From positions 9,052,001 through 9,116,000 of the forward strand of contig OZ287753.1 of the NCBI GenBank assembly GCA_965649765.1: a stretch of DNA of 64,000 bases. The letters are read 5' to 3'. Source of the DNA: Bispira polyomma. Taxonomy: Eukaryota. A program made the translations under genes and the position numbers. Each line of letters starts with the position of its first letter. The stretch's first letter is position 1. The notes below the pieces were generated by a model that saw only the letters and a list, made by a program, of their open reading frames with translations, was not told the DNA's origin and ran no database searches. Below are positions 18,036 through 48,422 of this stretch, piece after piece.

Positions 18036-21000
18036 TTAATTGCCCCCAGGTTCACCTTTTGGGCCGCGTGGACCACGGAGGCCAATTATACCAGGACGAC
18101 CTTCGAAACCTAGAAATACCAAACATATGTATGCTGAAGTTATTTTTTTAATGTCTTTGGTCATTACGGCAGTCAGAATATCTTTTAACAAAATCAAATG
18201 ATATAGAAGGGCTAAACTATGTGAAAGCTTTACAAAATATAAAGAATGAAATAAGAAAATGGAATACTGGATATTTAACACCATTTGGTCAAAAAACAAT
18301 AATAAACATCATTTCCAACTGTATCCACCTGTTAAAATCAATGCAAAGCTCAGGTTCTTTTATTTGTGCCAACTACATCTAAGGGGGGAAGGGGGGGGGG
18401 GGGATAAACTGATAAATATCTCTCACTTTCAAAAGGCTCTTGAAGTAAGTTGGATAAAAACTCCATCAAGCACTCAGTCGTGGAAATTATATACAAACAT
18501 AAACCATATTGGCAATGAGTGGTGTAAAACAATTTAATAAAAAAAAACAAAAAAACACACAATCAGTTCTGGCACAATGTTCTAGAATATTGAGTAGATT
18601 TATGCACGAAACAAACCTGTACCTCTAACTGGGATATTTTAAGGACTTGCATTTGGTATAACTCATATTTTTGATAAGCCTACATTTCTTTCAGATTGGT
18701 ACAGAAGTCGAATATATAATTTTTAAATCACAAATTTAACTGCAGTGTTAACATTTTAAAATACCATAGAGTAAAACTAAATGTTAAATCCTTTAGTTTA
18801 AAAAATACAATTGAGTCTCAATGGATATCTTAGTAGCTAACATATCCATTACATTTGAATGCAGGTTATCAAAATTACCAAGGATGCAAGAAATTTTTTT
18901 TGTTTACAATGGGGCTAATCCAAAAGAAAAGGCACTTTGCCAAAAAATATGGAGAAGCATACTTAGGGAGGAGTCCACAGATATTGAGAAAGAAGATAGG
19001 TGGGCTTTGGTTTACAAAATATACTTTGAGAGTATACATGACAATAAACTTATTTAGTTTTAATGCCGAATTTTTTTATAAAATTTGGGAACTAAATATC
19101 AACTAATAATAAAAGTAGTTTTTGTAAGCCACATGCGAAAACCAATATATTAAATAAAAGATGGGTAATTTGGGGAAAATATTTTTTTAAGTACTTCCTG
19201 CATTTTTCTTGTTATTTTAAAAAAATTAATAAAGATATATATTCAGTGATTATTTGAGTGTGCACAGATTGTTAAAACCTTTTATATGCTTAGTTAAGTG
19301 GGAAAATAAAGAATTTAAATAAAAAAACAAAAACTTACCAGGTCGTCCCGGATGCCCTTTCTCTCCACGCAGTCCACTACGTCCATGTAATCCTTCTGCT
19401 CCCATGCCACCTGTCATTCAATTCATAAAAAAGTACCAGTACCTGTCACCATATATATCTGCCTTAAGCTGGCAGCCACAGGATGGGATGAAATAGTACA
19501 TTTGTTATAGTGCACTTACAGACCACAGTGTCCTTTTAAATGCGCTTCCTGATGGGCAGCCACTATGGGCACTGAGGTGCTTAATGATGACCATTTATCA
19601 ACGTCCCCAAGGATCTTTAATCTGCCACTGGAGATATTACTCAGTGACAGAGGACTGTCATTTTAAGTGGCCATCCAAGCCACTAGGCAAACTTGTGTTC
19701 ACATCTTGCCTATGGATGTTATCCCACCAAATGAAACTAGCAGCCGGTACTGGGAATAGAACCGGGGACCTTCTGATCATCAGACCAACAACCTAACCAC
19801 TAGACCACGGTGGATCAAACCAATGTGATTAATGTTCCCAGGCAAGTGTTTTCCCACAAGGAGGTTACTGACAGAATAGAAATTGACATAAGGGGGAAAC
19901 AAAGCGGACATACCTTTAATACCTGGAAATCCACCGTTTCCATTCTCTCCTTTGTCACCCTTCACACAAAATCCTGTATCATATAACATTTCGATTCTAC
20001 AGACACAGAAATTTGTATTTGGAATTGTTCACCTAAAATAAGCTTTACTAGTGAACGTTACTGGACAATAAAAAAGTTGACTTGTTTTCAGTTAAAATTA
20101 ATCAGAAGTGAAAATAATTTCCAGTAAAAATTGTTCCTAGTTAAAAGTTACTCAAGACTGTAATTATTTAGTATTTTTTAACAAAGCCCATATTCTATTA
20201 TTATTTAGGTTGAATAGAACCATCAGCATTCAATTTAAATATGCAGTCAATTTTATTTAATCTTCCCTGTCGCCACAGATAGGATGACTGTTTTTATTCA
20301 GCATTTTATGTCAATCTTGGAAGCTACACACCTCTGATGGATAGAATAAAATAGAAATACTATTCTAATGAACCATCTATGATCTGAACAAAACCTTTCA
20401 CTCCTAGCATGTTTGAAAAATAGAGGTTTTTCCTTCATATATATTTATACACACATTATTGCCATCATTACCACACATAGTTACATACCACTGGCTGCCG
20501 GCATATCCAGTTTGTGTTTGTCAATCATCTCTTGGATCTTGTTCAGTCTATAGTGTAAGGTGACCGAGGCTCTGTCAAACTGGTTTTCATCCAGACTTTC
20601 GGGATCTGTACCTAGTGTGCTCACAACATCCTATAAAGCATAACCACAAGCCATGATTTCCATTCATCCAATTTAGTACTTTTTTATTGTTGGATAAATT
20701 AGATCTTCTATTATCTAAAACTTTATATTATCCAAATATGACATCAGATTGAACCCGAAGCAGCATCTAGCATTGACAGTCTTAAAACTAGACATTTAAA
20801 CTGTTGCTAACTTGAATAACAAGCAACATCATAACTAGGAGAATGAACTGGGCAGGAGAGTTTACTTCAAAAGGGTTTTGCCTGATGTTGAAATCTAGCT
20901 TTAACTGATCTTCAGAAAATATACTCTAGAAGTGGACTTCTTACCAAATACACATTTCGGCTATATTCTTCTGTGAGCCTGAATATTAAAAAGTACTAAA

Positions 21001-21305
21001 AGTACTGAAAGACTAACACTTATTAGAGGCCATGTACATACAGACAACTCAACGTGTGATGGCTTCCTCCACCAGTAAACTACGCATTTTGATATATTCA
21101 GATGCTGAAAGTGAATTTAAACTCTAATTAAGGTGAAAAAAAACTATATTAATAAGATGGTGCGATAGCAGACTAGAAGGAGAGAACCTTATTTCAACTT
21201 ACATCTAGTTCTGTAAGTTTTGTGGACAGTTTTGTACACAGTTTACTCAGATGCTTGATGTCTGCACGGATGTAAGAAACCATGGCTTTCTCTTGTGCCT
21301 CACCC
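18036..21305 (-). CDS. Collagen-tailed protein gene copy 1 (divergent; five exons, signal-peptide exon not found)
   Basis: GT-AG exons 21305-21203, 20630-20489, 19973-19914, 19410-19339, 18109-18036, all in frame: GEAQEKAMVSYIRADIKHLSKLCTKL...DMPAAS-GFCVKGDKGENGNGGFPGIK-GGMGAEGLHGRSGLRGEKGHPGRP-GFEGRPGIIGLRGPRGPKGEPGGN*. Confidence 0.8.
18740..19320 (+). mobile_element. Decayed L1/Tx1-like ORF2 3' fragment in an intron
   Basis: W..VYKIYFESIHDNKLI.F..RIFYKI.GT pattern resembles the zf-RVT-proximal region; A-rich end at ~19315-19333. Confidence 0.45.
19495..19812 (-). mobile_element. tRNA-derived SINE
   Basis: Minus strand begins ccaccgtggtctagtggttagg (A box) ... ggttctattccc (B-box-like); central ggatggccacttaaaatgacagtcctctgtc...ttaaagatcc; L2-like tail aagtgcactataacaaatg. 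Confidence 0.7.
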
Positions 21306-24136
21306 CTGAAATGTAGCATAAAAAATACATATGGATAGAAAGAAACCTGGATTTTCTACATAAATCTAAGCTCTGACATGTTGTGTAAATCAAAGCTACA
21401 GCAAGTGGATAAATTATTCCAAACATGGCACCTTAACCCAATATGTACTACCAGGTACTACATTTGTAAATACCAGGTTTATATTTGACATAATAATATT
21501 ATAGTGTCAGAACCCCCCAAAAAAGGATATGAAATAACTTGTGATATTGAGTTGATAGATCACTTGAAAATATATGCGTGTAAAATCAGTGACAGTGTAA
21601 TATCTACAGTGGCAGTGTAAACTATTGTGGCAACTTTTAAATTCCTAATGTAATCCCTAAAAATGCTATTTTATTGATAGCAGTGTATTTTAAGTGGTAG
21701 TTAAGTGTAATACCTAAAGTATTAGGCAAATCAAATACTTTCAGTGTTAGTAAAGTGGTAGTCAATGGTAGTGTAATACTTAAAGTATTAGGCAATGCTA
21801 GTATCAAATGTAGGATATTCATGAATAGAGAATCAAATACTTAGGAGAATGCATTATTTAAGGCTGTATTTTGTGACACTGTAATACTGTATGTGCTATT
21901 TATTGGTAATAGAGAACATTTTATTGTTGCTGATTGAGACCAGTCTCGATAATATGGTTGAAATTATATTTCCTAAACAAGTCTGGCTATTTAATTTACT
22001 TTGGGCTGGTCGCATTGTTTGAGGTAATGTTTATTGACACCTCACTCCTTTGACTACTACATTCTTACTATTACATCGTTACTGGCTAGCATTTCAAGTA
22101 TAATACCACCACTGACTAAAACTTTTTGTGTCAAAAGGTTTCTCTAACTAATTCATATTGCCATTTCATAGCATAATAATTATATATATAGTTTATTTGT
22201 AAATTTTTGTACATGAGACATGTACAACTCGTGTTCACATTATATATACTTGCTGTATGCCCCTTAATTCTACAAAAGTATCTCTAATAAGAACTGTTGC
22301 ATATTATTATGATTTGAATAAATTTGTATTAGACAATAAAGAAAAAAGCAGAAAAATATTATTTTGAGTCATGAAAACTCTTGGAAAAGAGGATATATAT
22401 CAGGTTATAATAACACCTTGAAACCTTATCAGTAATCAACAACATTAGGTTAACCATTTAAAATAACAAGCCCTGAAACAAAAAGCAGACAAGAAAATAC
22501 TGACTGTATTCAGTGACTTGTCCAGATTTAAAAACTTATATCAAACCTAAATAATGCAGTCTTCATGGAATAGGACAGTGATTTCTTACCTATGGAATGA
22601 CACACAGTTAATAGTATGTATTTAAAAATGAATGATACATATCATGCAATTGTTAAGTCATTTTATTTCTAAATGTAGAGATTGGATGAACTCTGAACAT
22701 CCACATATATCTCTATGAGTTTATTTGGTGAAAATAAAAAAAACTATTGTTTTTATAATACTAAAATGTTTTTTTCCCCTCAAAGTCATTCACCTTATTG
22801 TGTAATACTGCCATCTATTTTCATCACTTATAGTAGCCTTTCTTTGGATCCAATTGTGTGACCTCTCCAGTAAAATTTGTTTATCATAACAAACACACAG
22901 CTCAAAAGAAAAATAACAAAACAAATGGGTTATAAAGTTTGCTGTAGAAGCCTGCTTAACTTAATTCCAAAACTCAAAATAGGCTTATTATATGTAATAT
23001 TTTAATTTGAAAACAAATGCTGGATATCACATGGAGCCAGATAAGGCTACGGTTGCAGGTTTGTAACCTATTGTGTTAAAACAATACTCACACTTGTTGG
23101 TCACCAATATAGGGATGGGATACAGATCGTATTAGAATCATTAAAGTTTTAGAATAGATCTGCATGCAGGGCTGCTGCAAGAATATGTTTTTAAACCCAT
23201 TTTGACACTTAGTATAGAGTTAATTTTAGGATGTTCTTGTTTAACTTGGCCATTTGAAAAGAACGTAATACTGTCAGTACAATATAGACCTTTCCTAAAT
23301 GTTCCCCTTAATTTGATTAAGAAAAAGGTTTGCTAAATAACTATATGTGGGGAAAAAAGACTTTGCAAACTTTGCAGCACATTTTTTATAATCCAGCATT
23401 TTAGAGTCAAGCAATACCATCAGTACATCAACATCAGCTACAATTATTGTACTGAATTTTCTCATAAGGGTTTATATACCTGTAATTACCTTATACATAT
23501 CACCTGGTACATGCTGTAATCGAATATTCACTGTATCAATACCCAATGAGACCGCTTATGAAATCCCCTAACCGTTTGTCAGATGATGGTTTCAAACAAG
23601 TTCAAAATTTTGGCTCTCCAGGGACGGTTCAAATTAAACCACCTGTTGCAGTTGGTTGACAACCTCAGACTGTAGCTCAACCATTCTTGATAACCGTCTC
23701 CACTTCTAGTCACTTCAAACCGTCTATTACCATTGGTGGAATATTTGCAGATGGTAGAGCACAGTGATAGGTAAGAGGCGGTGATGTGCTCCCATCCGGT
23801 AGACTCCCAGTGAGAGCAGTTAATCCCGGCGATTGAAGCAGTGAGAAGTGGTGGCAAAGCGGTGGTCAAGCATGGCGAAGCAGTGACAAAGCTGTTGTGT
23901 ATGGGTGAAATAAGGTGACAAGAGGTGACCATATATGATAGTAACGGTTTGGAACGTTGTCCTATATATAGTCTACATGTGCATATCACAATCATTTCAT
24001 TTTGCAGTGTCAGTGGTTAAGTGTATTTTGAGGGTTTACTTAAACTGGTGTACCATATGATTTTTTTAATGGATCTTAACCTGGACCTCGAGATCCTGTA
24101 TGGCTCTAGTGGACCGGGGGAATGGGGGACCAAATA

Positions 24137-24292
24137 TGACGAGAAAGGCCAAGCTACACCTGGAAGATGTTGGGGAGGACATGCTCATTGACTGGGTCTG
24201 AGATAACCTCTGCCTATATAGCAAGGGTTTACAGAAACACCAAAGAAGGGCCAACCTCTGGGACGACAAGGCTGTTGAGATGAACCTGACCA
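24137..24292 (+). pseudogene. Decayed MADF/Myb-SANT-like exon (paralog at ~39377-39532)
   Basis: MTRKAKLHLEDVGEDMLIDWV*DNLCLYSKGL / TKRRANLWDDKAVEMNLT; stop and frameshift present in both copies. Confidence 0.55.
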
Positions 24293-25991
24293 GTGACAAA
24301 TAAAAAAATTTAATATGTAATAGATATGTATATAACGTGTAATATATCAGAATTAAATATGTCCTGAATTTATGATATAAATAATGTATAGATAATGTAT
24401 AAGTAATAAATATGTAATTGGTATAATACAGTGAAAATGTGAAGTATGGGTACATGTGTTTTCTGTATTGTAAGGCTGCAGTGGATGATAAACTTTATCC
24501 TGTTTTTCCTGTCTATCCAGGAGGCGGGGCCTTTAACATTAGGTTCCAGGATGATTAGCCCCCTCTTGGAGGTAGAGGATGACATCCTAGTGGATTCTCC
24601 ACCTCGACCGAACACAGGCGATAGCACCACCCCAACTTTGCAGCCTGCAAAGTACAGCAAGAAGGTTACCAGTACAGAGAGTATGGAGGATCATAAACTA
24701 ATAAAAATTTTGATGGAGGGCAATGAGGGCCCAAAGAAGGCCTTTGAGAGGATGGACAAGGCTCTGTGTCAGCCATTATCAGTTGAGAAGCCTACAAAGC
24801 AACATGGCTGGGGCCTATATTGATGAATACATCTCTTCCATGGCTTGCAGTCTCTGATGGTTACACCAGGGTCCTCTCAATGTGTTCACACTACTACTAT
24901 CCAGGTGCCCAGATATAAAGTCAGAATGAGAAGACAGTTGGCACAAAACATTGTGGATTTAGATTTATAATTACACAAGCTTCACTGAACTGAAGGTTTG
25001 AGCTCAACTAAAAGGACAATTAGCAAACCAGATGTAATTTTATTAACAGAGGTACATATCACACAAGAGAATGTGTATTCTATGTACAAATCATTTAAAT
25101 ATTTAAAATAAATTGCTGACTTATATAATTTAATACAGAACCAATATTGTATCAACGGAGGTATGAAGAATCAAGGACATGAGCAGTGCTGTGTTTTGTA
25201 TATAAGTGGCTGATATTATCAAATAGGTTATCTTCGAAAAAAGTCTAGCAGGAGGTTAAAAATATCAGACACATTTTTTCTTTGTGTTGGTTTTTTTTAT
25301 GAAAACAGTATATTTTTTGTTGTAATAGCTTCCCATTAGGGGGTACAATTTTTTTTTTTTTTTTGTTGACAGTCTTGCAACTACTATTTACTTATTAATA
25401 AAATAAATAAACCAAAATCATTTACCAGTGGGTTGAAGCCTCACATGAACATGTTTATGGTATTTTACTTTTCTGTGTCAACATCTTTGGAACAGTGGAT
25501 AAGATCACCTGGTTCAGAAACTGCTAAGGACTGGTAAGGTAAACCATAGGGCAGTGTAGGTGTGTACAAACTATACTATAGCTGTAAATATATAGTCCTG
25601 CTTCTAACTGGTCAAAACTTCAAGTAAAATAGTTACTTTGTAGTTATTGTTTGCGTAAAAATAAAATAAAACACCTATAATTGACTATTATGGTGATTTG
25701 GCACACAGGTTACGATTTTCAGCACCAACTAACCTTTTCATGTCTCCCTAAGTACAACCAACCGGCATCGGTCACTGTCATTCTGATAACTAACTGTGGA
25801 CAGATACTTGGGGATGAGCAATTTATACTGGGGAAACTTTTTCCTGGCTATTTCTTGCAAACCAAGAAAGTTCATATTTGGTACGTATGAATATTGCTTA
25901 CAGGGGGTAGATGTGCCAGAGCATGGTCTAATTTTATCTCAAGGCCGAGGGGTTTACGGAATATGTGAAGCTATCTTTCAGAATCTGTCCT

Positions 25992-26240
25992 TGAATTTGA
26001 ATTTGGATATATAACGTCCACTCTAGTACCTTTTAGTAGGTTATATTGGGACGGGTAGTTGGAAACGCTGGAGGAAACACTGCATACAGTCGGTCAAGGT
26101 TCTGCAGAGAAACCAGCAGTAAGGAACTACCACCTTTCCCACATAGGCATCGGCGAGATTCGAAGTGAGAGACGAGTCAGAGGTGAGAGACCAGTGATTG
26201 CGAAGTGCAATGCTTGCTAACCACTAGGCCACTGCGGCCC
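25992..26240 (-). mobile_element. tRNA-derived SINE, full length, 15-bp TSD
   Basis: Minus strand gggccgcagtggcctagtggttag (A box), cttcgaatc (B-box-like), (ttcaaa)n tail; TSD ttcagaatctgtcct at 25977-25991 and 26241-26255; empty site in unit II at ~41455. Confidence 0.9.
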
Positions 26241-26409
26241 TTCAGAATCTGTCCTATAGGTGTCCAAATGATATTACCAAACAGAGGTTTGCTCTCCCAA
26301 CATGTAATCGAATCTGTCTTTACCAAATTTTACATTGAACCTAATGGCTTAAGTATATTACCTTTAGCTTAGCCATTTAAAACAAGAATATGTAACTTGT
26401 TATAAGTCA

Positions 26410-27367: not shown

Positions 27368-30300
27368 TTAATTGTTCCCAGGTTCACCTTTTCGGCCACG
27401 TGCACCACGCCCCCCAGGAAGACCAGGCCGGCCATCTAAACCTAGGAATACAAAAACTAGAAGTAGTTAATTGAGAAAAAAAAAACAAATTGTGTGTGGT
27501 CTATATGGTGGTTAAGATATTAATGCAGCATAATGGGCACTAACCCTCGACAAAGTTATGTGTGTGTAACAAGAATAGATTTACTGAATCACATGCTTTG
27601 TTTGCTATATCACTTTTATGCTATTGACCTTCTGGTGATGAACTAAAGCATCTGTAAGAATGACTTCAGTCAATTTGGTGCGAAAAAATTTTAAATATTG
27701 AGTCAATATTATTTTAACTTTGTCACTTCCTCTCACAAATTGCTGTGATTTGTATTTCAAGCCTCCTTATTTTGTGAAAGATGTAAATCCTGTGACAGCA
27801 GTGATCAGGCTGACGTTTTGTCCAATCTTGGTATTTTGTCAAATATCCTAAACTTCAAAAATAATATCATGATTTTTCTATATAAGAAAGATATTTAAAA
27901 TCTGACATATTTTTATTCCTTGCTGATGTCTCTATTTAATATAATGACAGAATGTCTAAGCCTATTTCGATTAATTCTGTATACCTATATGTATATTATT
28001 TGGCAGCATGTTTAAGCCTATTTCCATCAATTTTGTATACCTATATGTAAGATATTTGACAGCATGTCTAAGCTTATTTGCATTAATTCAGTATACCTAT
28101 ATCTATGTTACTTTGCAGCATGTCTAAGCCTATTTCCATTAATTTAGTATACCTATATGTATGTTATTTGGCAGCATCTCTAAGCCTATTTCTAATAATT
28201 CTGTATACCTATATGTATGGTATTTGGCAGCATGTTTAAGCCTATTTTCATTAATTCAGTATACCTATATCTATATTACTTGGGAGCATGTCTAAGCCTA
28301 TTTTCATTAATTCAGTATACCTATATGTATGGTATTTGGCAGCATGTTTAATTCTAATTCCATTAATTCAGTATACCTATATCTATGTTATTTAGCAGCA
28401 TGGCTACGCCTTTTACCATTATTTAGAAAACCTATATCTATGTTACTTGGCAGCATGTCTAAGCCTATTTCTAGTAATTCTGTATACCTGTATGTATGAT
28501 ATTTGGAAGCATGTCTAAGCCTATTTCCATTAATACAGTATACCTATGTATACTATACCTATCTTATTTGAGTTTAAGCATGAGTTTAAGTTTTAGATCA
28601 TTGATAAATACGACCCATACTAATTTACCATCTTCTCCTCGATCTCCTTTAATACCAATGCCAGTGTCACCTTGATCTCCTTTCATTCCATCACGTCCAT
28701 CCCGTCCTGGTAATCCCATGTCACCTGTAATAAAATTTATAGTGACACCCATAATGATATTGACAAGGAAGTGTTTGATTACAGGGTTGTTGTGATTAAA
28801 AGTCACACATCATTATAGTCTGAAGACTTGTCAATCAGCAGCTTTTATCAATATTAGAAATTAACAATGGATCGATAGCCATAGGCCAGCCTAATTGGTG
28901 ATAGTCTTTGAAAGATGAGTTCTTTAGAGCTCTAATTTTGTTCAGTTTTCTATTTTAACAAAAATGATTGAGTTAAGTTATGCTTTTGATTCTAATAATG
29001 TTTGGGGCTTTATAACTTGTTGGGATCTATGAATGGTATAAGTATTACAACAAAAGTATGTCTGAACTGAAACTTTCTGAATTATTATATTTGACTACTG
29101 TTTATAAATTTAATACAAATGAGTTGTTCAATCAGTGTGTTGGTCACATTGTGTGGTATGAAGATAAACTTATAAAAATGAACAATTCCTCAATTGTTGC
29201 CATACAAAAAGGTCAAATTCCTGTTAAATAGTGAAAACTCATGTTTTATTATTTAAACCATGTTAAATTGTTGTTTCTATCAAATCATAACTCTATGTAT
29301 TTATAATATATAAGTAAGAGGACATTAATAAAGATATAAAGATAATATGTATACAATCATTAGTTTGAACCAATGTATATATTGTGTACCTGCTAATACA
29401 GGCCATTGGTAGATCTTATCCCAGATTTAAGCTGAGAACTATGCTTCTTTCTATTAACTGTTGTTTCAAACGAACATTAATTTGAGAATCCTGATTTTAC
29501 ATTCACCCGAGAAGTTCCACACTTAGAACAACACTGAAAACATTACAGAAACAATTGTCCTGACATTTTGCACAAACAAAGCCATAAATTTGACTAGAAG
29601 TGGTTTTTAAAGGAATGTGACAGCATGGAGCTAGATTGTCTGTAAATTAAAAACACATTCACTCACATGGGTTCTAATTAAATTTTGACATATGTGCATC
29701 TTAAAAAAAATGTCCTTTGTTATCTTTTGCAAAGTTTTTCTCACAGCAATCTTTCATACTTTATCTTCCCATATATTATAACTGCATATTAAAATCCAGG
29801 GCAAGTCATTGGTCATCTTGTCAACCAATTAGATAAGGATATGTTTTTATCATGTGAAACATTAGTCACCTTTAGACCTTAGGGTCCTTAAAGTCACAAC
29901 CTCAAACACATCTGATGAAATATATTAAAATGTCAAAATAATTTCAATAACTTAAAGTATTTACAAATATTCAGATATGCTAAAAATCATACTGTGAGAC
30001 AGGCTTTAATTCTGTAAATCATAACTGGAAACAGACTACAAAACTACATCCAGCAAACACCACCAACTGTCATTCACCTAACTTAAAATAAGCACAATTT
30101 GTCATCTCCAAAGCTATTTGGATTGCCACTGAGGACAGGAACCAATGACTGAGGACCACCATTTTAAAGTTGTAATTTTCTGCCTGTAGTTGGGAGGCCT
30201 AGGTTGTGATTGAACCCGGGTAATATATGTTCTAAGCTGATTGTAAAACCTATAAGGCCGCTATTGACAGAATATGAAGTGACAGAAAAAAAGAAAATTC

Positions 30301-32928
30301 TGACATACCTTTAATACCTGGAAATCCAGGGAATCCATCATCTCCTTTGTCACCCTTCCTGCAGATTCCTGTGGGTTAACAGCATATAAAACAGACAATT
30401 TTTCATCTACAATAAGCTCCATAGTAAAAGTTAATAAACCATGCAAATATCAGTAACAAGAATTTAAGTGAAAATATTTTTATTCTAGGTAAATTTTTCA
30501 CAATGTTGTATTCTCAACCTAAGAAACTCAAACTCAAACTAAGATTTAACTGAAGGATGGCGATGTAAAAGTTCCTGTACATAGATATTACCTGTACCCA
30601 TGACCATTTCTTTTCCTAGAACTGTCAGCACTGAATTCAAATATGTAATAAGATTTCATATATGTATCGTCCTTGTAGCCAAAAAGGAGACCTTAGAATT
30701 AAGCTTGATATTTTGTAAGAATAGGGCTACAGAGTTGTAGTTACATGTATGAGGTTTGGCTGTGTCAGCTCTTAGTGGGATGGGGTAAGTGATATTTGTT
30801 TGTAGTGAGGTTATGTGTATGCCCAGCAACTTTAAGATTTATCACTGTGATAGCAAACCAACTTGCTCTCCTGTTTCCTTTGGATAACGGAAGCTTTAAT
30901 GTATACGTACACACAATAAACAAGTTCTTACCACCTGCTGCAGGCATGTCCAGTTTGTGTTGGTCAATCATTTCCTGGATCTTGTTTAGTCTGTAGTGTA
31001 AAGTGACAGAGGCTCTGTCAAACTGGTTCTCATCCAGGCGTTCAGGATCTGTACCTAGTGTGCTCACAACATCCTATAAAGCATAACCACATGGCATTAT
31101 TGGGCGTCAGTCAATATATCACTTTCCTATTGCAAAATATACAATACCTCTTACCATAAAATTTTTATTATCCAAATACACTATCTGTTTTTTTCAAAGT
31201 ATGCCTATAATAGAGGTTTCTACTTTTCTCCTGTAGTTCCAATTGATCTCAAGGCAGCATCTAACATTTTCAAATTCCAAAGAAGGGACAACAATTCTTT
31301 TTGTAATCTGTGTAAAACTTCTAGGATAGTGAGGTGGATAAGTTAGTGTGTGTCACTATATGTTTTGTTAGATGTAGCTTTAGAAGACTAGAAGAAGAGA
31401 ACCTTATTTCAACTTACATCTAGTTCTGTGAGTTTTGTGGAGAGTTTTGTACACAGTTCACTCAGATGTCTGATGTCTGCACGGATGTAGGAAACCATGG
31501 CTTTCTCTTGGACCTCATCTCTGAAGTGTAGCACAAACATCACATGAGTACAGAAAGGACGAGTTAAAAGTAAAAACATCCAACATCATGTTCAAAACTT
31601 CTGTGGGTAATTCGCTCTGAAAGCGCATCTTGAGAGAACAAGAGAATGCGGGTGTGGTTGGGGCTTAAAGGGGCAAAAACAGGGCTTAAACTGCTCGGAA
31701 CTTGTGTAAACGGCACTTCAACTGCTTAAAACTTGTGTGATCTGGCCAATGCCAGAATGCCCCTTCCCACCACCTTTAAAAAGTAATTTTAGATGACTGA
31801 ACCCTAATATGTCAGAAGGTGCTACACAAAATATAATTTATTACGAAATTACAGTATTTATTTGGAAATTATACAATTTTATTCGTTTGAGTGGGATATA
31901 TACTAATCAACACCATCAATACCATGTTCGTATTTCAATAACCGACTACCAAGTAACAGGACATTCTGTGTTACACTGCCACATCATACAAGTACAGCAT
32001 TATCAGTGAATGCCATTTCAAGGTATAAATTGTCAACAATGTCACTGAGTATCACCTTAACCCCACCACTAAATACAACTTTGACTATTACACTATCACT
32101 AACTAGCATTTTATGTGTGACACTATTATCACACTAAAACTGACCACCACTTTAAGTATAACACTATCACCGACTACCACTTTAAGTATAACTCTAGCAC
32201 TGACAACCATTTTAAGTATAACACTACCACCGACTACCACTTTAAGTATAACACTAGCACTGACAACCACTTTAAGTATAACACTACCACTTACTACCAC
32301 TTTAAGTATAACACTACCATTGACTACCACTTTAAGTATAACAATACCACTGACTACCACTTTAAGTATAACAATACCATTGACTACCACTTTAAGTATA
32401 ACAATACCACTTTAAGTATAACACTAGCACTGACTACCATTTTAAGTAAAACAGTAGCACTGACTACCACTTTAAGTATAACACTAGCACTGACTACCAC
32501 TTTTAGAGTAACACTAGCACTGAGTACCACTTTAAGTATAACAATACCACTGACTACCATTTTAAGTACAACACTAGCACTAACTACCACTTTAAGTATA
32601 ACACTAGCACCGACTACCACATTAAGAGTAACACTACCACTGACTGCCACTTTAAGTATAACTACTTCATATTGCTATAACATTGGTTACCATATTAATT
32701 ATAACACTATTACAGACTATCATGATAACTATCACACCACCGTAAGACTTACCTGGGAGGTGAAGGCACTGGTTGACTTCCAGACACAATTCTGGTCACC
32801 ATTCTTTCAACAGAGGCAAGTCTTTCTTGCATATCCACAGCCACATTACCACTGTCCTGGGTCCATACCCCAGAAATCACTATCCCCAAGCCAAAGGTGG
32901 CTACAAGACAAAGGTACTTTAAAGACAT
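27368..32928 (-). CDS. Collagen-tailed secreted protein gene copy 2, six coding exons, 216 aa
   Basis: GT-AG exons 32928-32753, 31520-31418, 31073-30932, 30368-30309, 28724-28629, 27441-27368 (651 nt; intron phases 2,0,1,1,1). Signal peptide MSLKYLCLVATFGLGIVISGVWTQ; Gly-X-Y run from KGDKGDDGFP to GARGRKGEPGNN*. Confidence 0.9.
27947..28562. repeat. 56-bp minisatellite, ~11 copies, intronic
   Basis: Unit approx. gcagcatgtctaagcctatttccattaattcagtatacctatatgtatgttatttg; only ~2 copies at the paralogous site 43160-43270. Confidence 0.92.
32120..32662. repeat. 30-bp minisatellite, ~18 copies, intronic
   Basis: Unit actgactaccactttaagtataacactacc. Confidence 0.95.
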
Positions 32929-36339: not shown

Positions 36340-37210
36340 ATCAGACTTTTTTAGCGCTTATTTTCGTTGTGAAGAACTCTAAGGAGCAAAAAACCACAGC
36401 CAGAGCCAAAAATCAATGGTGATAGACAGAAGGAAATCGTCATTAATGAGTTCACCGAGAACAGGAAAGAGACTATGGAGGGAATCCATCATTGAACAGA
36501 TAGGTTTTAAACTGTACTGGAAGAAATACAGGGACAGAGCTATCATGATATGTTGAGGTAAACTATTCCATAGTGTAGGAGCATCATTTGAAACTTTTAT
36601 CAAAGTAAACCTTTGACCGGTGCACTTTGGACTTATATTTTGCAACAAGGAGACATCTATTTTGGGAGCAGCTCACCTGGTATTAACATTATACTTGTAG
36701 TAACACAAGTGTAGTTTAAAGTATTTAGGCGAACCCAAATCGAGAAACATGCTATTGTAGCAGTTTTAAAAAAACACCGATACCTAACAGGAAGCCAGTG
36801 GGGTGACTTTAGAATCGGTGAAGCATGTGAAAGCCGAGCTGAACAACTGACCAGACGTACCAATGAGTTCTGGATGCATTGCAAGTTGTTTAGGTCATTT
36901 TTGGTCAAACTACGACACAGTAAATTGCAGTAGTCCAGTCTGTTACCAACCAGAGCAGTTATTGCAACCGATTTTGGAAGGTATCTTCTTATTCTCCAAA
37001 GGTCTCTAAGACCCATGAAGCATGACTTACACACTGATTGGATATGACTGGAAAAGGAAAAAATCACTATCAAACACAACTCCCAGGTTCCTCACTTTAT
37101 CAGTTGGGGATAACAGTGTCACAAGAATGTTTACTGAAAAATAATTTGCTCGAGTCAAACAATTGAATTCGGTTTTATTAGGATTCAGCCGAAGGTTGCT
37201 ACAACACAAA
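36340..37210 (-). mobile_element. L2-clade LINE 3' fragment (paralog ~55615-56462)
   Basis: LRLNPNKTE, VRNLGVVFDS, RIRRYL, RLDYCN, LQCIQN, HWLPVRYR, APTLWNSLP. Confidence 0.88.
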
Positions 37211-40200
37211 TATACTTCACAGACATCCCTCTCCAGATATTAGTCCTGCCAACTAAAGTGATCAGATGTGTTTTGTCTAGTCAATTTTTGTAAGTAAGAT
37301 ATTTCAATGATACATGTACTCGTGTTCACATTATATATACTTGCTGTATGCCCCTTAACTCTACAAAAATATCTCTAATAAGAACTGTTGCATATTATTG
37401 TGATTTGAATAAATTTGCATTAGACAATAAAGAAAAAATCAGCAGGAAAATATTATTTTGAGTCATGAAAATTCTCAGAAAGGAGGATATATAACGCTGC
37501 TTAAAATAACTTAAAATAAATTTAGATTCTAATAACACCTTGAACCTTATTCATGATCAACAACATTAGGTTAACCATTTAAAATAACAAGCCCTGAACC
37601 AAATTGCAGATAAGAAAATCCTGACTGTATTCAGTAACTAGTCCAGATTTAAAAATTTATATCAAACCTAAATAATGCAGTCTTCATAGAATAGAACAGT
37701 GAATTCTTACCAATGTAATGACACACAGTTAATAGTATGTATTCAAAAATATATCAGCTAGTTGAACAAAACATGAGCGCAAAATAGAGTAGAAAATGTA
37801 TTTACTACAAATTAAGTTTAAAGCTTGTTTTATAAAGAATTTATATCCAGATGCCAATAATTATGCAGTATATCATATGTATGATACAATTGTTGAGTCA
37901 TTTTATTTCTAAAATTTGAAATTGGATGAACTCTGAACATCCATATATTTCTATGAGTTTATTTGGTGAAAATTAAAAAAATGACTATTGTTTTTATAAT
38001 ATTAAAATGGGATTTTTTCCACAAAGTCATTTACGTTATTGCATAATGCTGCCATCAATGTTCATCACTAATAGTAGCCTTTCTTTGGATCCAATTGTGT
38101 GACCTATCTAGTAAAATTTGTTCATCATGCACACACAGCTTAAAAGAAAAATAGCAAAAAAATGGGTTATTAAGTATGCTGTAGAAGTCTTCTTAACTTA
38201 ATTCCAAACCCCAAAATAGGCTTATTATAATGAATATTTTTTATTTGAAAACAAATGCTTGATATTACATGGAGTCAGATAAAGCCACTGTTACAGGTTC
38301 GTAACCTATTGTGTGAAAACAATACACACACTTGTTGGTCACCAATGTAGGGATGGGATACAGACCATATTAGAATCATATAAGTTTTAGAATAGATCTG
38401 CATGCAGGACTACTGCAAGAATATGTTTTTAAAAACTATTTGACACTTAGTGTAGAGTTAATTTTAGGATAGTCCTGTTTAGCTTGGCAATTCGAAAAGA
38501 ACGCAACACTGTCAGTGCAATATAAACTTTTCCTCAATGTTACCCTTAATTTAATTAATAAAAAGGTTTGCCAAATAAATGCATGTGGGATAAAAAGACA
38601 GACAAACTTTGCATAATATTTCTTATAATCCAGCATTTTACAGTCAAGCAATACCATCCGTACATCAACATCAGCTACAATTATTGTACTGAATTTTCTG
38701 ATAAAGGTTTATATACCTGTAATTACCTTATACATATCACCTGGTACATGCTGTAATCGAATATTCATTGTATCAATACCCAATGAGACCGCTTATGAAA
38801 TCCCCTAACCGTTTGTCAGATGATGGTTTCAAACAAGTTTAAAATTTTGGCTCTCCAGGGACGGTTCAAATTAAACCACCTGTTGCAGTTGATTGACAAC
38901 CTCAGACTGTAGCTCAACCATTCTCTATAACCATCTCAGTCCAGTTCTAGTCACTTTAAACTGTCTATTACCATTGGTGGAATATTTGCAGATGGTAGAG
39001 CACAGAGATAGGTAAGAGACGCTGAGGTGCTCCCATCTGGTAGACTCATAGTAAGAGGGGTTAATCCCGGCGATTGAAGCGGTGAGAAGCGGTGGCAAAG
39101 CGGTGGTCAAGCATGGCGAAGCAGTGGTGAAGCTATTGTGTTTGGGTGACATCAGGTGACAGGGGGTGACCATATATGGTAGTAACGGTTTGGAACGTTG
39201 TCCTATATATAGCGTACATGCGCATATCACAATCATTTCATTTTGCAGTGTCAGTGGTTAAGTGTGTTTTGAGGGTTTACTTAAACTGGTGTACCATATG
39301 ATTTTTTTAATGGATCTTAACCTGGACCTCGAGATCCTGTATGGCTCTAGTGGACTGGGGGAATGGGGGACCAAATATGACGAGAAAGGCCAAGCTACAC
39401 CTGGAAGATGTTGGGGAGGACATGCTCATTGACAGGGTCTGAGATAACCTCTGCCTATATAGCAAGGGTTTACAGAAACACCAAAGAAGGGCCAACCTCT
39501 GGGAATACGAGGCTGTTGAGATGAACCTGACCGGTAACAAATAAAAAGATTTAATATGTAATAAATATGTATATAACATGTATTATATCAGAATTAAATA
39601 TGTCGTGAATTTATGATATAAATAATGTATAGATAATGTATAATGACTAAATATGTAATTGGTATATATACAGTGAAGTATGGGTACAAGTGTTTTCTGT
39701 ATTGTGAGGCTGCGGTGGATGATAAACTTTATCCTGTTTTTCCTGTCCATCCAGGATGCGGGGCCTTTAACATTAGGTTTCAGGATGATTAGCCCCCTCT
39801 TGGAGGTAGAGGATGACATCCTGGAGGATTCTCCACCTTGACCAAACATAGGCGATAGCACCACCCCAACTTTGCAGCCTGCAAAGTACAGCAAGAAGGT
39901 TACCAGTACAGAGAGTATGGAGGATCATAAACGAATAGAAACTTTGATGGAGGGCAATGAGGGCACAAGGAAGCCCTTTGAGAGGACGGAGAAGGCTCTG
40001 TGCCAGGCATTATCAGAGAAGTCTACATAGCAACATGGCTGGTGCCAATATTGATGAATAAATCTCTTCCATGGCTTGCAGTCTCTGATGGTTACACCAG
40101 GGTCCTCTCAATGTGTTCACACTACTACTATCCAGGTGCCCAGATATAAAGTCAGAATGAGAAGACAGTTGGCACAAAACATTGTGGATTTAGATTTATA

Positions 40201-42592: not shown

Positions 42593-45500
42593 TTAATTGT
42601 TCCCAGGTTCACCTTTTCTGCCACGTGCACCACGCTCTCCAGGAAGACCAGGCCGGCCTAGGAATACAAAAACTAGAAGTTGTTAATTGAGAAAGAAAAA
42701 ACAAATTGTGTGTGGTCTATATGGTGGTTAACATATTAATGCAGCATAATGGGCACTAACCCTCGACAAAGTTATGTGTGTGTAACAAGAATAGATTTAC
42801 TGAATCACATGCTTTGTTTGATATATCACTTTTATGCTATTGACTTTCTGGTGATGAACTAAAGCATCTGTAAGAATGACTTCAGTCAATTTGGTGCGAA
42901 AAATTTTAAATATAGAGTCAATATTATTTTAACTTTGTCACTTCTTCTTACAAATTGCTGTGATTTGTATTTCAAGCCTCTTTATTTTGTGAAAGATGTA
43001 AATCCTGTGACAGCAGTGATCAGGCTGACGTTTTGTCCAATCTTGGTATTTTGTCAAATATCCTAAACTTCAAGAATAATATCATGATTTTTCTATATAA
43101 GAAAGATATTTAAAATCTGACATATTTTTATTCCTTGCTGATGTCTCTGTTTAATATAATGACAGAATGTCTAAGCCTATTTCGATTAATTTTGTATACC
43201 TATATGTATGTTATTTGGCAGCTTATCTAAGCCTATTACCATTAATACAGTATACCTATATGTATCTTATTTGAGTTTAAGCATGAGTTTAAGTTTTAGA
43301 TCATTGATAAATATACTAACATACTAACTTACCATCTAATCCTCGATCTCCTTTAATACCAATGCCAGTGTCACCTTGATCTCCTTTCATTCCATCACGT
43401 CCATCCCGTCCTGGTAATCCCATGTCACCTGTAAAAAAATTTATAGTGACACCCAAAATGATATTGACAAGAAAGTGTTTTGATTCCAGGTTGTGTGATT
43501 AAAAGTCACATATGACTGTGGTCTGGAGACATTTCAATCAGCAATCATTATTAACGCTAAAAATTAACAAAGGATCGATAGCCAGAGGCCAGCTTAATTG
43601 GTGATAGTCTTTGAAAGATGAGTTCTTTTGGGCTCTAATTTTGTTCAGTTGCTATCTGTTCACCCATTGGATGTTGAAGGCTTTTTCTTGATGCTAGTAT
43701 TTCAGCTAAAGTGTCGACAAAAGTGTATTTTCTATTTTAACAAATATGATTGAGTTGACTCTAATAATGTTTGGGGCTTTATAACTTGTTGGGATCTATG
43801 AATGGTATAAGTATTACAACAAAAGTATGTCTGAACTGAAACTTTCTGAATTATCATATTTTACTACTGTTTATAAATTTAATACAAATGAGTTGATCTA
43901 TCTGTGTGTTGGTGACATGGTGTGGTATGAAGATAAACTTATAAAAATAAACTGTCGCCTGTCGCCATATAAAAAGGTCAAATTCCTTTCAGATATATAA
44001 ACCTTGTAAATTTATACATTATGTAACATTATCTTTTATATCTTGTATATTAATTGACATGTTAAATAGTGAAAGCTCATGTTTTATTATTTAAACCATG
44101 TTAAATTGTTGTTTCTATCAAATCATAACTGTATGTATTTATAATATATAAGTAAGAGGACATTAATAAAGATATAAAGATGATATGTATACAATCATTA
44201 GTTTAAACCAATGTATATATTGTGTACCTGCTAATACAGGCCATTGGTAGATCTTATCCCAGATTTAAGCTGAGAACTATGCTTCTTTCTATTAACTGTT
44301 GTTCAAACAAACATTAATTTGAGAATCCTGATTTTACATTCACCCAAGAAGTTCCACACTTACAACAACATTGAAAACATTACAGAAACAATTGTCCTGA
44401 CATTTTACACAAACAAAGCCATGAATTTGACTAGAAGTGGTTTTTAAAGGAATGTGACAGCATGGAGCCAGATTGTCTGTAAATTAAAAACACATTCACT
44501 CACATGGGTTCTAATTAAATTTTGACATATGTTCATCTTAAAAAAAATGTCCTTTGTTTTTCTCACAGCAATCTTTCATACTTTATCTTCCCATATATTA
44601 TAACTGCATATTAAAATCCAGGGCAAGTCATTGGTCATCTTGTCAACCAATTAGATAAGGATATGTTTTTATCATGTGAAACATTAGTCACCTTTAGACC
44701 TTAGGGTCCTTAAAGTCACAACCTCAAACACATCTGATGAAATATATTAAAATGTCAAAATAATTTCAATAACTTAAAGTATTTACAAATATTCAGATAT
44801 GCTAAAAATCATACTGTGAGACAGGCTTTAATTCTGTAAATCATAACTCGAAACAGTTTCTAATGTAACATTTCCAAAGAAATATTTTTAAAAATAACCA
44901 AATTTAACTATTATATTGTATTGTATTTCTATATTCATATTTTTCTATATTTCTATATTCAGCATTGTATTTGTGTACTCAACGCTGTATATCCCTGCTT
45001 CATTCAGAACTGCTAATTTACATTTTCTTGACTTGCAAAACTACAACCAGCAAACACTAATAACTGTCATTCCCCTGACTAAAGATAAGCACAATTGGTA
45101 ATCTCCAAGGCTATTTATAGAGTGTCACTGAAGACAGGACCCAATGACTGAGGACCACTATTTTAGAGTTGTATTTTTCTGCCTGTAGTTGGGAGGCCTA
45201 GGTTGTGATTGAACCCGGGTAATCTATGTTCAAAGCTGATTGTGAAACTTATAAGGCCGCTATTGACAGATTATGAAGTGACAGAAGGGAAGAAAATTCT
45301 GACATACCTTTGATACCTGGAAATCCAGGCAATCCATCATCTCCTTTGTCACCCTTTTCACAGATTCCTGTGGGTTAATAGCATATAATACTACAGACAA
45401 TTTTTTATCTAAAATAAGCTCTATAGTAAAAGCTAATGAACAGTGTAAATGTCAGTAACAAGAATTTTCAGTGAAAATATTTTTATTCCAGGTAAATTTT

Positions 45501-46540
45501 CCACAATGTTGTATTCTCAACCTAAGAAACGCAACCTCAAACTAAGATTTAACTGAAGGATGGCGATGTAAAAGTTCCTGTACATAGATATTACCTGTAC
45601 CCATTTCTTTTCCTAGAACTGTCAGCACTGAATTCAAATAGGTAATCAGATTTCATATATGTATCGTCCTTGTAGCCAAAAAGGAGACATTCGAATTAAG
45701 CTTGATATTTTTGAAGAATAGGGCTACAGAGTTGTAGTTACATGTATGAGGTTTGGCTGTGTCAGCTCTTAGTGGGATGGGGTAAGTGATATTTGTTTGT
45801 AGTGAGGTTATATGTATGCCACTCAACTTTAAGACTTGTCACTGTAATAGCAAACCAAGCCTGCTTTCCTGGTTGCTTTGAATAACGGAAGCTTTACTGT
45901 ATACGTACACACAATAAACAAGTTCTTACCACCTGCTGCAGGCATGTCCAGTTTGTGTTGGTCAATCATTTCTTGGATCTTGTTCAGTCTATAGTGTAAA
46001 GTGACCGAGGCTCTGTCAAACTGGTTCTCATCCAGGCGTTCAGGATCTGTACCTAGTGTGCTCACCACATCCTATAAAGCATAACCACATGGCATTATTG
46101 GGCGTCAGTCAATGTATCACTTTCCTATTGCAAAATATACAATACCTCTTATCACAAAATTATCATTATCCAAATACAATATCTGTTTTTTAAAGTCTGC
46201 CTATAATAGAGGTTTCTACTTTTCTCCTGTAGTTCCAATTGATCTCAAGGCAGCATCTAACGCTTTCAAATTCCAAAGAAGGGACAACAATTCTTTTTGT
46301 AATCTGTTTAAAACTGCTAGGATAGTGAGGTTGATGAGGAAGTGTGTGTGTCACTATATGTTTTGTAGAAGAAGAGAACCTTATTTCAACTTACATCTAG
46401 TTCTGTGAGTTTTGTGGAAAGTTTTGTACACAGTTCACTCAGATGTCTGATGTCTGCACGGATGTAGGAAACCATGGCTTTCTCTTGGACCTCATCTCTG
46501 AAGTGTAGCACAAACATCACATGTGTACAGAAAGGAAGAG

Positions 46541-46597
<57 letters not shown>

Positions 46598-48422
46598 TAG
46601 AAATCGTGGTAAAATAAATTTTAGTTGCTAATGTGGCAGTCACACTGTCCACGTTCTATAGGGCCGTGTACTCCCGATGTGAAGACTTGTGTGATCTGGA
46701 GAAAACGTCCAACATCATGTTCAAAACTTCTGTGGGTGATTGTCTCTGAAAGCACATCTTGAGGAAACAAGAGAATGCGGGTGTGGTTGGGGCTTAAAGG
46801 GGCAAAAACAGGGCTTAAACTGCTCAGAACTTGTGTAAACATCACTTCAACTGCTTAAAACTTGTGTGATCTGGCCAGAACTGGAGATATTTAGTGTGAT
46901 CTGGAGAAAAAGTTTCATGAATGTGTGGTGAACTGCTTAGATTTTATCCGGTCTGGGCATAAATACGTCATAAACTGGTGAGATCTGGTCAGAACTGGGC
47001 ATAAACGGGGCTAAACTGGGCATAAACTGGGTATGCAAATATATGCAAATGCAAATGAACATTTTCCCCCAATTCTCTCTCGACCAGACCAGTCGGGAGT
47101 AAACTGATATACATGTGGCAAGAACCCGGACAGTGTGACTGCCGCATTATATGAGTTATATTTAAAATGCCCCTTCACACCACCTTTAAAAAGTAATTTT
47201 AGATCACTGAATCCTAATATGTCAGAAAGTGCTACACAAAATATATTTTATTGCCGAAATTACAGTATTTATTTGGGAATTATACAATTTTATTCGTTTG
47301 AGTGGGATATGTACTAATCAACAGCATCAATACCATGTTCGAATTTCAATAATCGACTACCAAGAAACAGGACATTCAGTGTTACACTGCCACCTTATAC
47401 AAGTACAGCATTATCAGTGAATGCCATTTCAAGGTATACATTGTCAAGAATGTCACTGAGTATCACCTTAACCCCACCACTAAATACAACTTGGACTATT
47501 ACACTATAACTGACTACCACTTTAAGTATAACAAATACCATTGACTACCACTTTATCTAGTACAATAGCACTGACTGCCACTTTAAGTATAACACTAGCA
47601 CTGACTACCACTTTAAGTATAACACTACCACTGACTGCCACTTTAAGTATAACACTATCACTGACTGCCACTTTAAGTACAACACTAGCACTGACTACCA
47701 CTTTAAGTATAACACTACCACTGACTACCACTTTAAGTATAACACTACCACTGACTACCACTTTAAGTATAACAATACCACTGACTCTCACTTTAAGTAT
47801 AACAATACCACTGACTCTCACTTTAAGTATAACACTACCACTGACTACCACTTTAAGTATAACACTAACACTGACTACCACTTTAAGTATAACACTAGCC
47901 CTGACTACCACTTTAAGTATAACAATACCACTGACTACCACTTTAAGTATAACACTAACACTGACTACCACTTTAAGTATAACACTACCACTGACTACCA
48001 CTTTAAGTATAACAATACCAATGATTACCACTTTAAGTATAACAATACCACTGACTCTCACTTTTAGTATAACACTACCACTGACTGCCACTTTAAGTAT
48101 AACACTACCATTGACTACCATTATAAGTATAACACTAGCACTGACTGCCACTTTAAGTATAACTACTTCATATTGCTATAACATTGGTTACATATTAATT
48201 TTAACACTACTACAGACGATAAATATCACACCACCGTCAGACTAACCTAGGAGGTGAAGACACTGGTTGACTTCCAGACACAATTCTGGTCACCATTCTT
48301 TCAACAGAGGCAAGTCTTTCCTGCATATCCTGAGCCACATTACCACTGTCCTGGGTCCATACCCCAGAAATCAATATCCCCAAGCCAAAGGTGGCTACAA
48401 GACAAAGGTACTTTAAAGACAT
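42593..48422 (-). CDS. Collagen-tailed secreted protein gene copy 3, six coding exons, 213 aa
   Basis: GT-AG exons 48422-48247, 46497-46395, 46071-45930, 45367-45308, 43428-43333, 42657-42593 (642 nt, open frame); ends GLD-GRPGLPGERGARGRKGEPGNN*. Confidence 0.9.
46543..46595. repeat. (TA)n microsatellite
   Basis: About 26 TA units; absent at the paralogous site ~31565. Confidence 0.95.
47500..48162. repeat. 30-bp minisatellite, ~22 copies, intronic
   Basis: Same unit as 32120-32662. Confidence 0.95.

Follow-up and report, generated by a model that had tools for sequence, protein, structure and literature searches.

Gene copies and exon layout

The window analysed here, a 64-kb stretch of Bispira polyomma DNA, contains nine minus-strand Gly-X-Y runs of at least six triplets, all between 18039 and 45353, while 50 block shuffles yielded none. 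Three genes, A, B and C, were delineated, all on the minus strand and with canonical splice signals predicted from the DNA. Gene C (ATG at 48422, stop at 42593) encodes 213 aa. Its exon 1 (48247..48422) comprises the ATG, a predicted signal peptide (residues 1-23), helix 1 and a Pro-rich linker, exon 2 (46395..46497) the heptad helix 2 with Cys82, and exon 3 (45930..46071) the end of helix 2, a loop and helix 3. Cys143 and the first Gly-X-Y triplets are found in exon 4 (45308..45367), collagen with one interruption in exon 5 (43333..43428), and the last triplets and the TAA in the coding part of exon 6 (42593..42657), with AATAAA 162 nt downstream. Gene B (32928-27368, 216 aa) has exons 1 to 4 at 32753..32928, 31418..31520, 30932..31073 and 30309..30368. 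Its exon 5 (28629..28724) matches Pfam Collagen at E=1.7e-4, under the curated cut-off on a piece of 33 aa, and the coding part of exon 6 with the TAA (27368..27441) is followed by AATAAA after 167 nt. Gene A (21305-18036, 150 codons) consists of exons 2-6 only, with exon 2 (21203..21305) as its first remaining exon, exons 3 and 4 at 20489..20630 and 19914..19973, an exon 5 that is 8 codons shorter and uninterrupted (19339..19410), and the coding part of exon 6 with the TAA at 18036..18109, 165 nt ahead of AATAAA. Gene A has lost its exon 1 to a deletion near 22213. Contigs of both DNA samples run across the junction without difference, and an assembly error was therefore rejected as the cause. 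In three sequencing runs of one study, all consisting of DNA contigs, no joint fell exactly at an intron, a result that does not bear on expression.

The family reaches outside the window. Genome-wide it comprises five intact copies (B, C, D, E and F), the partial gene A and two decayed copies, all on one contig. A divergent paralog, H, has an intact exon 1 just ahead of the window (contig positions 9051684-9051863) and a decayed exon 2 that has lost its donor (13195..13299, plus strand). Five exon-1 relics, all on the minus strand, accompany the two pseudogenes and the loss of exon 1 in gene A: three of H type with approximate ends, two of them with stops and a frameshift (24790..24951 and 40020..40182) and one frameshifted (58620..58786), and two stubs of 13 codons (37188..37226 and 56443..56481). 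In the six end-bearing copies (A-F) all 29 introns are GT-AG with conserved phases, and in four of the six an AATAAA follows the stop at a distance of 162-167 nt. An intact copy runs from the predicted signal peptide through about 120 helical residues with Cys82 to Cys143, 21-23 Gly-X-Y triplets and KGEPG(N/G)N before the stop. The first-pass annotation of this DNA had proposed three spliceable paralogs (216 aa, 213 aa and one partial) with one Cys in an amphipathic region, a second just before the helix, and triplets running to the stop codon; the splice sites, Cys82 and Cys143, and a TAA that closes the collagen in all six end-bearing copies agree with it on each of these points.

Conserved N-domain and variable collagen tail

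Cys82 sits in an LSELCTKL motif and Cys143 three residues ahead of the collagen helix. Heptad a/d positions of helices 1 and 2 are 83% hydrophobic, and the AlphaFold models of the pieces encoded by exons 1 and 3 are single helices. A trimer prediction that combined the exon 2 and exon 3 peptides in three copies each reached 0.51, with 0.01 for the best control, which is weak support. The exon 2/exon 3 complex runs gave 0.57, 0.51 and 0.04, with contacts agreeing to at least 65%, a partner pLDDT of at least 42 and no interface given; this set-up is unlike the calibration set, and pieces of the same gene can pass through their likeness to solved helical bundles. In that calibration 51 of 78 solved pairs came up to the mark, as did 2 of 108 mismatched ones, yet scores up to 0.60 covered only 5 of the 78 solved pairs and all four passing mismatches. 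Of 120 aligned N-domain columns, 98 are invariant, and between intact copies the N-domains, which are the putative assembly domains, share 91-98% identity. As judged from these alignments, the predicted N-terminal helical domain is the conserved part of the protein. It would be a new candidate N-terminal trimerisation module, 120 residues long, for short proline-poor collagens.

In the collagen tail, which genes B and C each interrupt once, all 24 Gly columns are invariant (omega 0.001). Only 14 of the 52 X/Y columns are invariant, seven of them Lys/Arg, and the tails of intact copies differ at up to half of their X/Y positions. The middle of the predicted collagen rod is the variable part. 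The protein ends two residues past the last Gly. A basic patch had been proposed at this end, with the collagen tip as the ligand-binding part. The patch itself stands in so far as the last 15 residues carry a net charge of +1 to +3 (whole tails, -1 to +4), but the last exon is net neutral in copies E and F (2/6), and invariant basic residues near the end are limited to a single Arg and the Lys within KGEPG, so that a conserved basic tip that binds the ligand is not supported in the form proposed.

What is new in this analysis is that, across the predicted coding sequences, the N-domain is constrained while the collagen X/Y positions evolve fast. Omega is 0.20-0.24 in the N-domain, below 1 (2dL 18-31), and 1.5-1.9 at collagen X/Y, exceeding the N-domain (2dL 17-29). 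Between B and E, 112 of 120 N-domain residues are identical and only 25 of 50 X/Y residues; dS for this pair is 0.10 in the 5' half and 0.23 in the collagen. An X/Y omega above 1 was obtained under shared rates (p 0.001-0.003), whereas it was not significantly above 1 once the collagen exons were given their own mutation rate (p 0.08; p 0.19 without gene A), and constraint at X/Y may therefore simply be relaxed. Among the site models M2a beats M1a, with p 0.03 for the collagen alone and p 0.0006 for the whole gene, the latter signal resting on two sites of which one lies beside an uncertain gap in gene A. All these tests draw on a set of just six sequences that includes a near-identical pair, and their results can be inflated by gene conversion. 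dN at X/Y exceeds collagen dS in six of seven pairs and is below it for B and C. For B/E and D/E, dN at X/Y is 0.35-0.40 against an aligned intron 4-5 divergence of 0.12-0.16, a value that local intron alignment underestimates. Positive selection on the X/Y positions is supported in part, as it would follow from the site models and not from the strictest partition test. A comparable pattern, with invariant Gly, X/Y under selection and a discussion of pathogens, is described for sea-urchin collagen IV in the portion consulted of PMC5521101.

Relatives and known collagen proteins

The first-pass annotation had recognised no family, and in single-exon searches the N-domain likewise matched none, a conclusion that these searches support. 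Exon 3 against 5.8 billion proteins gave 0 of 11 candidates and the exon 1 alignment 0 of 1437. PDB sequences against the three exon profiles returned nothing better than E 0.16, and Pfam scans of exons 1-3, each taken singly, nothing significant; Col_cuticle_N had no match at E<=1 in these scans, which are less sensitive than full-length ones would be. One match of the exon 3 profile among 1.84 billion representatives covered 9 positions in an unrelated repeat protein and was rejected. Exon-sized queries are weak, and the blanks carry little weight because the control, an exon from a known family of sodium channels (Pfam ASC, E 1e-12), likewise drew a blank when put through the same word-indexed search. 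A mollusc haemocyanin search was blank along with its control and is uninformative. No description of this headless collagen family was found in the open-access literature searched.

C1q, collectins and ficolins are secreted and have about 20-25 triplets after a Cys, with Lys in the Y position. The Bispira proteins would share secretion, the short collagen, the Cys ahead of the triplets and Lys at Y with them, but lack a C-terminal recognition head or neck and carry a helical domain of about 120 residues at the N-terminus. The order of parts is reminiscent of nematode cuticle collagens, streptococcal Scl and the SCARA3 ectodomain. The helical region of the Bispira proteins is much shorter than that of class A scavenger receptors, and C-terminal cysteines and the Col_cuticle_N domain are typical of nematode cuticle collagens. 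With SCARA3 and the class A receptors, as far as the consulted portion of PMC3567963 describes them from vertebrates, the family shares a helical coiled-coil region followed by collagen of about 70 residues and some basic residues near the end, and SCARA3 also ends at its collagenous domain. The Bispira proteins differ in having no cytoplasmic tail (30-55 residues in the receptors), a probably cleaved signal, no evident conserved lysine cluster and no sequence match. Nematode cuticle and MACIT collagens, according to excerpts of PMC10538796, have in common with them a short interrupted collagen, an N-terminal signal or anchor, a non-collagen N-region, a Cys ahead of the helix, no globular C-terminal head and a multigene organisation. 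Among the cuticle collagens an N-terminal RxxR convertase site occurs in 109 of 173 members (PMC10538796), whereas residues 21-145 contain none in any of the five intact Bispira copies, which also lack Col_cuticle_N and C-terminal cysteines and have only 21-23 triplets. In the sections seen on Scl1 and Scl2, an N-terminal helical domain nucleates trimerisation ahead of the collagen, in Scl2 as a six-helix bundle with two antiparallel helices per chain (PMC6736723, PMC8968730). The likeness in layout is an analogy only; the Scl N-domain is variable and the C-end wall-anchored, whereas the Bispira N-domain is constant and the collagen end would be free and variable. Other invertebrate short triple helices, some without a further recognised domain, are reported in part of PMC12549020 for Nematostella collagen-like proteins, spongin-like short-chain collagens and minicollagens; the Bispira proteins lack the NC1, cysteine-rich end domains and poly-Pro flanks of the latter two.

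Proposed assembly and competing explanations

Our best explanation, which we hold tentatively and at somewhat less than an even chance, is a young, recently duplicated birth-and-death gene family encoding a predicted secreted trimer, in which the three chains likely come together through the constrained helical domain at the N-terminus and the headless short collagen rod would be an exposed, diversifying contact surface. The signal peptide would be cut after residue 23. Helices 2 and 3 of three chains would pack into a bundle with Cys82 in its core, and Cys143 could tie the chains together where the triple helix begins. The triple helix of about 70 residues, roughly 20 nm at the usual rise per residue, would fold from this N-end and, because its proline content is only 8-14%, would owe its stability mainly to Lys-Gly-Asp/Glu pairs and to prolines in the Y position. 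In the last and weakest step, rod side chains that differ between copies might touch a partner that itself changes; the likeliest candidates are microbial or parasite surfaces or collagen-binding proteins present in mucus, cuticle or body fluid. Recognition in the known defence collagens falls to the head, which sits on a conserved collagen stalk. The Bispira family would reverse this arrangement, with a constant assembly domain and a changing collagen surface. Provided that the tail is truly under selection, the family offers a small, tractable case in which to ask if a triple helix can act as a diversifying recognition or decoy surface.

A possible, though on balance unlikely, alternative is a structural secretion or matrix protein of cuticle, tube, cocoon, jelly or glue, in which the N-domain assembles or binds, the tail is a spacer or cross-linking arm and X/Y drift. 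The concentration of constraint in the N-domain (98/120 invariant columns against 14/52 at X/Y) is consistent with it, as is the Lys/Arg share of the invariant X/Y columns (7/14), expected of stabilising or cross-linking residues, and the strict selection test fails to reject omega=1. Moreover, the ligands tested for Scl1 bind its N-terminal helical V domain rather than the collagen in the portion consulted of PMC6736723, and in Nematostella, short collagen-like proteins that lack other domains show broad expression, as reported in part of PMC12549020. However, the site models and the shared-rate test favour an X/Y omega above 1, and the X/Y dN for B/E and D/E exceeds the (underestimated) intron divergence. 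If the tail merely drifts, the family is one more lineage-specific short invertebrate collagen.

We consider it unlikely that the hydrophobic N-terminus remains uncleaved and anchors a type II membrane protein, a SCARA3-like receptor with a helical stalk and terminal collagen. The part order fits SCARA3 (PMC3567963, in the portion cited above), hydropathy reaches 1.9 in a 19-residue window, and residues 1-23 are unusually conserved (omega 0.07), with 23/23 identical in six of ten pairs and 22/23 in the remaining four; in excerpts of PMC10538796, a type II topology is predicted for about two thirds of the cuticle collagens of nematodes. However, only about four residues precede the hydrophobic stretch. 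All five intact copies have an in-frame stop no more than 90 nt ahead of the ATG, which bars an extension and excludes a cytoplasmic tail like that of the class A receptors. The plausible cut after residue 23 has small residues, and VWTQ at this site is retained in paralog H at 39% identity.

The secreted trimer could also work as a combinatorial recognition or decoy system, with diversity driven by collagen-binding microbes or parasites, which we regard as improbable. The assembly domains are near-identical and the tails differ, therefore chains from different genes could mix into heterotrimers; five genes would give 35 possible compositions, more with chain register. If so, many distinct triple-helix surfaces would arise from few genes.

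That the protein is headless, its collagen ending at the stop with no usual head domain, is supported by the predicted gene ends. The terminal motif with TAA occurs six times in the 1.04 Gb genome, all within the family (reversed control, 0). A downstream globular-domain exon, named by the first-pass annotation as evidence against its headless soluble trimer, was looked for with Pfam, and none of 128 same-strand frames of at least 45 codons downstream of the collagen held a C1q, lectin, fibrinogen or SRCR head or an NC1 related to collagen IV; together with the upstream in-frame stops, this is in line with the earlier proposal of a trimer that lacks a head and is probably soluble. Splicing of the mRNA on to such a head is very improbable. 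Exons below the 45-codon frame size or unknown domains would escape the scan, and the only internal donor candidate common to all six copies, AG/GTGAAC, is placed 20 nt ahead of where the stop ends. However, it is a poor donor without the G that 28 of the 29 real donors have at +5, the reading register continues past it to the shared stop, poly(A) signals follow in four of six copies, and the DNA beyond, which diverges at an intron-like rate, consists of the next paralog, relics, LINEs or a GPCR. Read-through of the stop into a hydrophobic tail was rejected: past the stop the frame stays open over 47 codons in B and 49 in C, but over only 5 in D, 24 in A and 30 in each of E and F. A decaying cluster whose protein is no longer made is hardly credible, since the pseudogenes, exon-1 relics and truncated gene A stand beside five intact copies in which the N-domain is under purifying selection and no Gly has been lost.

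Gene models in the window and intact copies on contig C6

The window contains nine Gly-X-Y runs of at least six triplets, all on the minus strand (0 in 50 shuffles), which represent three repeats of one gene. With exon joining by splicing predicted from the DNA, gene C (ATG 48422, stop 42593, -) has six exons and encodes 213 aa, gene B (32928 to 27368, -) has six exons and encodes 216 aa, and gene A (21305 to 18036, -) consists of exons 2-6 only. The protein lengths, cysteines and triplet counts of the first-pass annotation are correct in these models. Exon 1 of gene A was removed by a deletion near 22213, and contigs from both DNA samples bridge the junction unchanged. Since exon 1 of gene B ends in phase 2 and exon 2 of gene A starts in phase 2 (32753 to 21305, -), gene A could in principle be expressed from exon 1 of gene B, skipping the gene B body; its intact frame may also be a mere trace of recent exon 1 loss.

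Intron 1 of the intact copies carries a 30-bp minisatellite (window 32127-32662 and 47469-48163). It creates extended frames without stops, rich in Val or Thr (47522-48121 is one), which resemble ORFs; they were rejected as repeat artefacts. A 56-bp minisatellite is repeated ~11 times within intron 5 of gene B (27948-28547) and occurs twice in gene C.

Searches of the same genome with exons 1, 2 and 3 and the terminal motif placed all family members on contig C6, of which 174 kb surrounding the window and a further 50 kb at a second site, that of copy F, were inspected. Copies D (9044151-9049419, +, 216 aa), E (9122291-9116959, -, 219 aa) and F (6848102-6853139, +, 219 aa) are intact and lie outside the window. 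E and F are inside an inverted duplication of ~30 kb with 96-99% identity, which could be a recent event or an uncollapsed haplotype.

Constraint on the predicted helical domain and the collagen rod

Residues 24-142 contain three amphipathic segments (~30-47, 68-99 and 108-135), with Cys82 at a core heptad position in the second, and Cys143 is followed by 21-23 Gly-X-Y triplets. Each chain has 3-7 Lys-Gly-Asp/Glu motifs, charge pairs with a role in triple-helix stability. Proline makes up 8-14% of the collagen, mostly at Y, where it is described as being hydroxylated and stabilising the triple helix (PMC12403961).

In codon models over the six copies, omega was 0.07 in residues 1-23 and 0.20-0.24 in the N-domain; at Gly positions it was 0.001, and at X/Y positions 1.5-1.9. 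The difference between N-domain and X/Y is well supported (2dL 17-29). With shared rates, omega at X/Y was significantly above 1 (p 0.001; 0.003 in the set without A); when the collagen exons had their own rate, it was not (p 0.08; 0.19 in the set without A). M2a was preferred to M1a both over the whole gene, where two sites drove the result (p 0.0006), and in an analysis restricted to the collagen (p 0.03), and dN at X/Y exceeded collagen dS in six of the seven pairs computed. Variable X/Y columns are mostly mid-rod, and seven of the 14 invariant ones are Lys or Arg. With only six sequences and probable gene conversion among copies, we lean only modestly towards diversifying selection, rather than relaxed constraint, as the cause of this pattern. 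Selected X/Y positions with fixed Gly are also described for sea-urchin collagen IV, with pathogens discussed as a cause (PMC5521101).

A complex prediction with exon 2 and exon 3 peptides, three copies each, scored 0.51 (best control 0.01; contact agreement at least 65%, partner pLDDT at least 42), with one of three runs at 0.04; in the calibration, which this job does not resemble, passes at or below 0.60 came from 5 of the 78 solved complexes and from all four passing mismatches. This weakly hints that the N-terminal helices of three chains may pack together.

Our best reading, held tentatively, is a secreted trimer: the signal would be cleaved, an N-terminal helical bundle would bring three chains together, and the free collagen rod with its changing side chains would contact a changing partner, most likely microbial. 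Less likely is a structural secretion with a working N-domain and a drifting tail, for which relaxed constraint, as allowed by the own-rate test, would suffice; the shared-rate test and M2a point the other way. If a secreted trimer is formed, the near-identical assembly domains (109-118 of 120 N-domain residues among intact copies) could allow chains of different paralogs to combine in heterotrimers and so give a large variety of collagen surfaces, an improbable extension.

Ends of the protein and relation to known collagens

Residues 1-23 are hydrophobic, and VWTQ at the likely signal cut is common to the family and the divergent paralog H. In all five intact copies, the ATG is preceded by an in-frame stop no more than 90 nt away, so there is no cytoplasmic tail. 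Judged from sequence, the N-terminus is probably a cleaved signal; a hydropathy of 1.9 over 19 residues would also permit an anchor, and a type II anchored, SCARA3-like receptor is thus conceivable, if rather improbable.

The genome has six instances of the terminal motif KGEPG(N/G)N with TAA, one for each copy that retains the last exon (A-F); in four of these, copies A, B, C and D, AATAAA lies 162-167 nt after the stop. In E and F no AATAAA was found within 400 nt of the stop because the UTR is interrupted by other sequence, identified from its reading frames as a LINE. A LINE-like insertion (window 61440-64000, -) lies ~110 nt past the stop of E and parts it from its ancestral 3' flank and poly(A) signal; the UTR of F is truncated in the same way. 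Only one GT of the last exon is shared by the copies, and it is without the +5 G present in 28 of 29 true donors. A scan of all 128 same-strand frames of at least 45 codons that lie within the window 3' of A, B, C and E gave two reverse-transcriptase matches, two sub-threshold chance matches and no head domain. As the first-pass annotation had proposed, the protein is very likely headless, and splicing from this poor donor to a downstream head domain is highly improbable.

The conserved basic patch proposed for the tip is only partly there: the tip has a slight positive charge (+1 to +3 in 15 residues), and the last exon carries no net charge in E and F. The final 24 coding bases (window 18036-18059, 27368-27391 and 42593-42616, -) are identical in five of six copies, silent positions included; gene A has two base differences, yet is ~0.3-0.4 diverged at silent sites elsewhere. 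Either a conversion tract or an element acting at the RNA level could account for this identity.

There are precedents for collagens that lack a C-terminal head. The SCARA3 protein ends at its collagen (PMC3567963), short collagen-like proteins lacking any further domain occur in Nematostella (PMC12549020), a signal or anchor and, in most cases, an RxxR site characterise nematode cuticle collagens (PMC10538796), and a helical N-terminal domain nucleates the trimer of Scl (PMC8968730, PMC6736723). The present family lacks the cytoplasmic tail of class A scavenger receptors, the head of C1q, collectins and ficolins, the RxxR of nematode cuticle collagens, the NC1 of spongin short-chain collagens and the wall anchor of Scl; as one defining feature of each is absent, we assign it to none of them. 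Its layout resembles that of a soluble SCARA3 ectodomain, or that of an unanchored Scl in which the variability is reversed. The family had been called unrecognised, in agreement with single-exon searches that found no sequence relatives, although a control exon from a known family was equally blank. No description of it was found in the literature, searched without supplements, which often hold proteome lists.

Family history and neighbouring elements

Copy G (from 9028418) is interrupted by stops. In copy H, exon 1 is intact but divergent (39% identity), the intron has retroelements throughout and exon 2 lacks a donor; several nested elements on both strands, which we take to be LINE-type from their endonuclease and RT motifs, fill intron 1 of H (window 540-11000). 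Five exon-1 relics are interspersed among the genes. Gene copies, pseudogenes, relics and the exon 1 loss of gene A together identify the family history as birth-and-death evolution. A wholly dead cluster would fit these remnants; set beside the intact copies and the constrained N-domain, it is very improbable. The gene family is genuine and apparently lineage-restricted.

An intronless rhodopsin-family GPCR of 349 aa (window 15056-16105, -; Pfam 7tm_1, E 3e-8) lies 1.9 kb downstream of gene A, and broken partial GPCR copies lie head-to-head ~2 kb upstream of copies E and F. An ENaC/degenerin channel exon (excerpt L015:9574-9822, -; Pfam ASC) was found upstream of copy E, with adjoining exons duplicated near copy F. 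At 9001000-9025000 of C6, frames provisionally named by motif as DNA polymerase, integrase, packaging ATPase, capsid-like and BIR-like ORFs resemble a Polinton/Maverick-type element and are partly present as an inverted duplicate (excerpts L020, L019, L009, L010). On contig C7, at 48.56 Mb, a cluster of extracellular-haemoglobin linker genes (L056, L057, L058), a hint that the animal is likely an annelid although linkers of this kind are reported from other metazoans too, gave three matches over the cut-off, one gene having an LDL-A-like exon.
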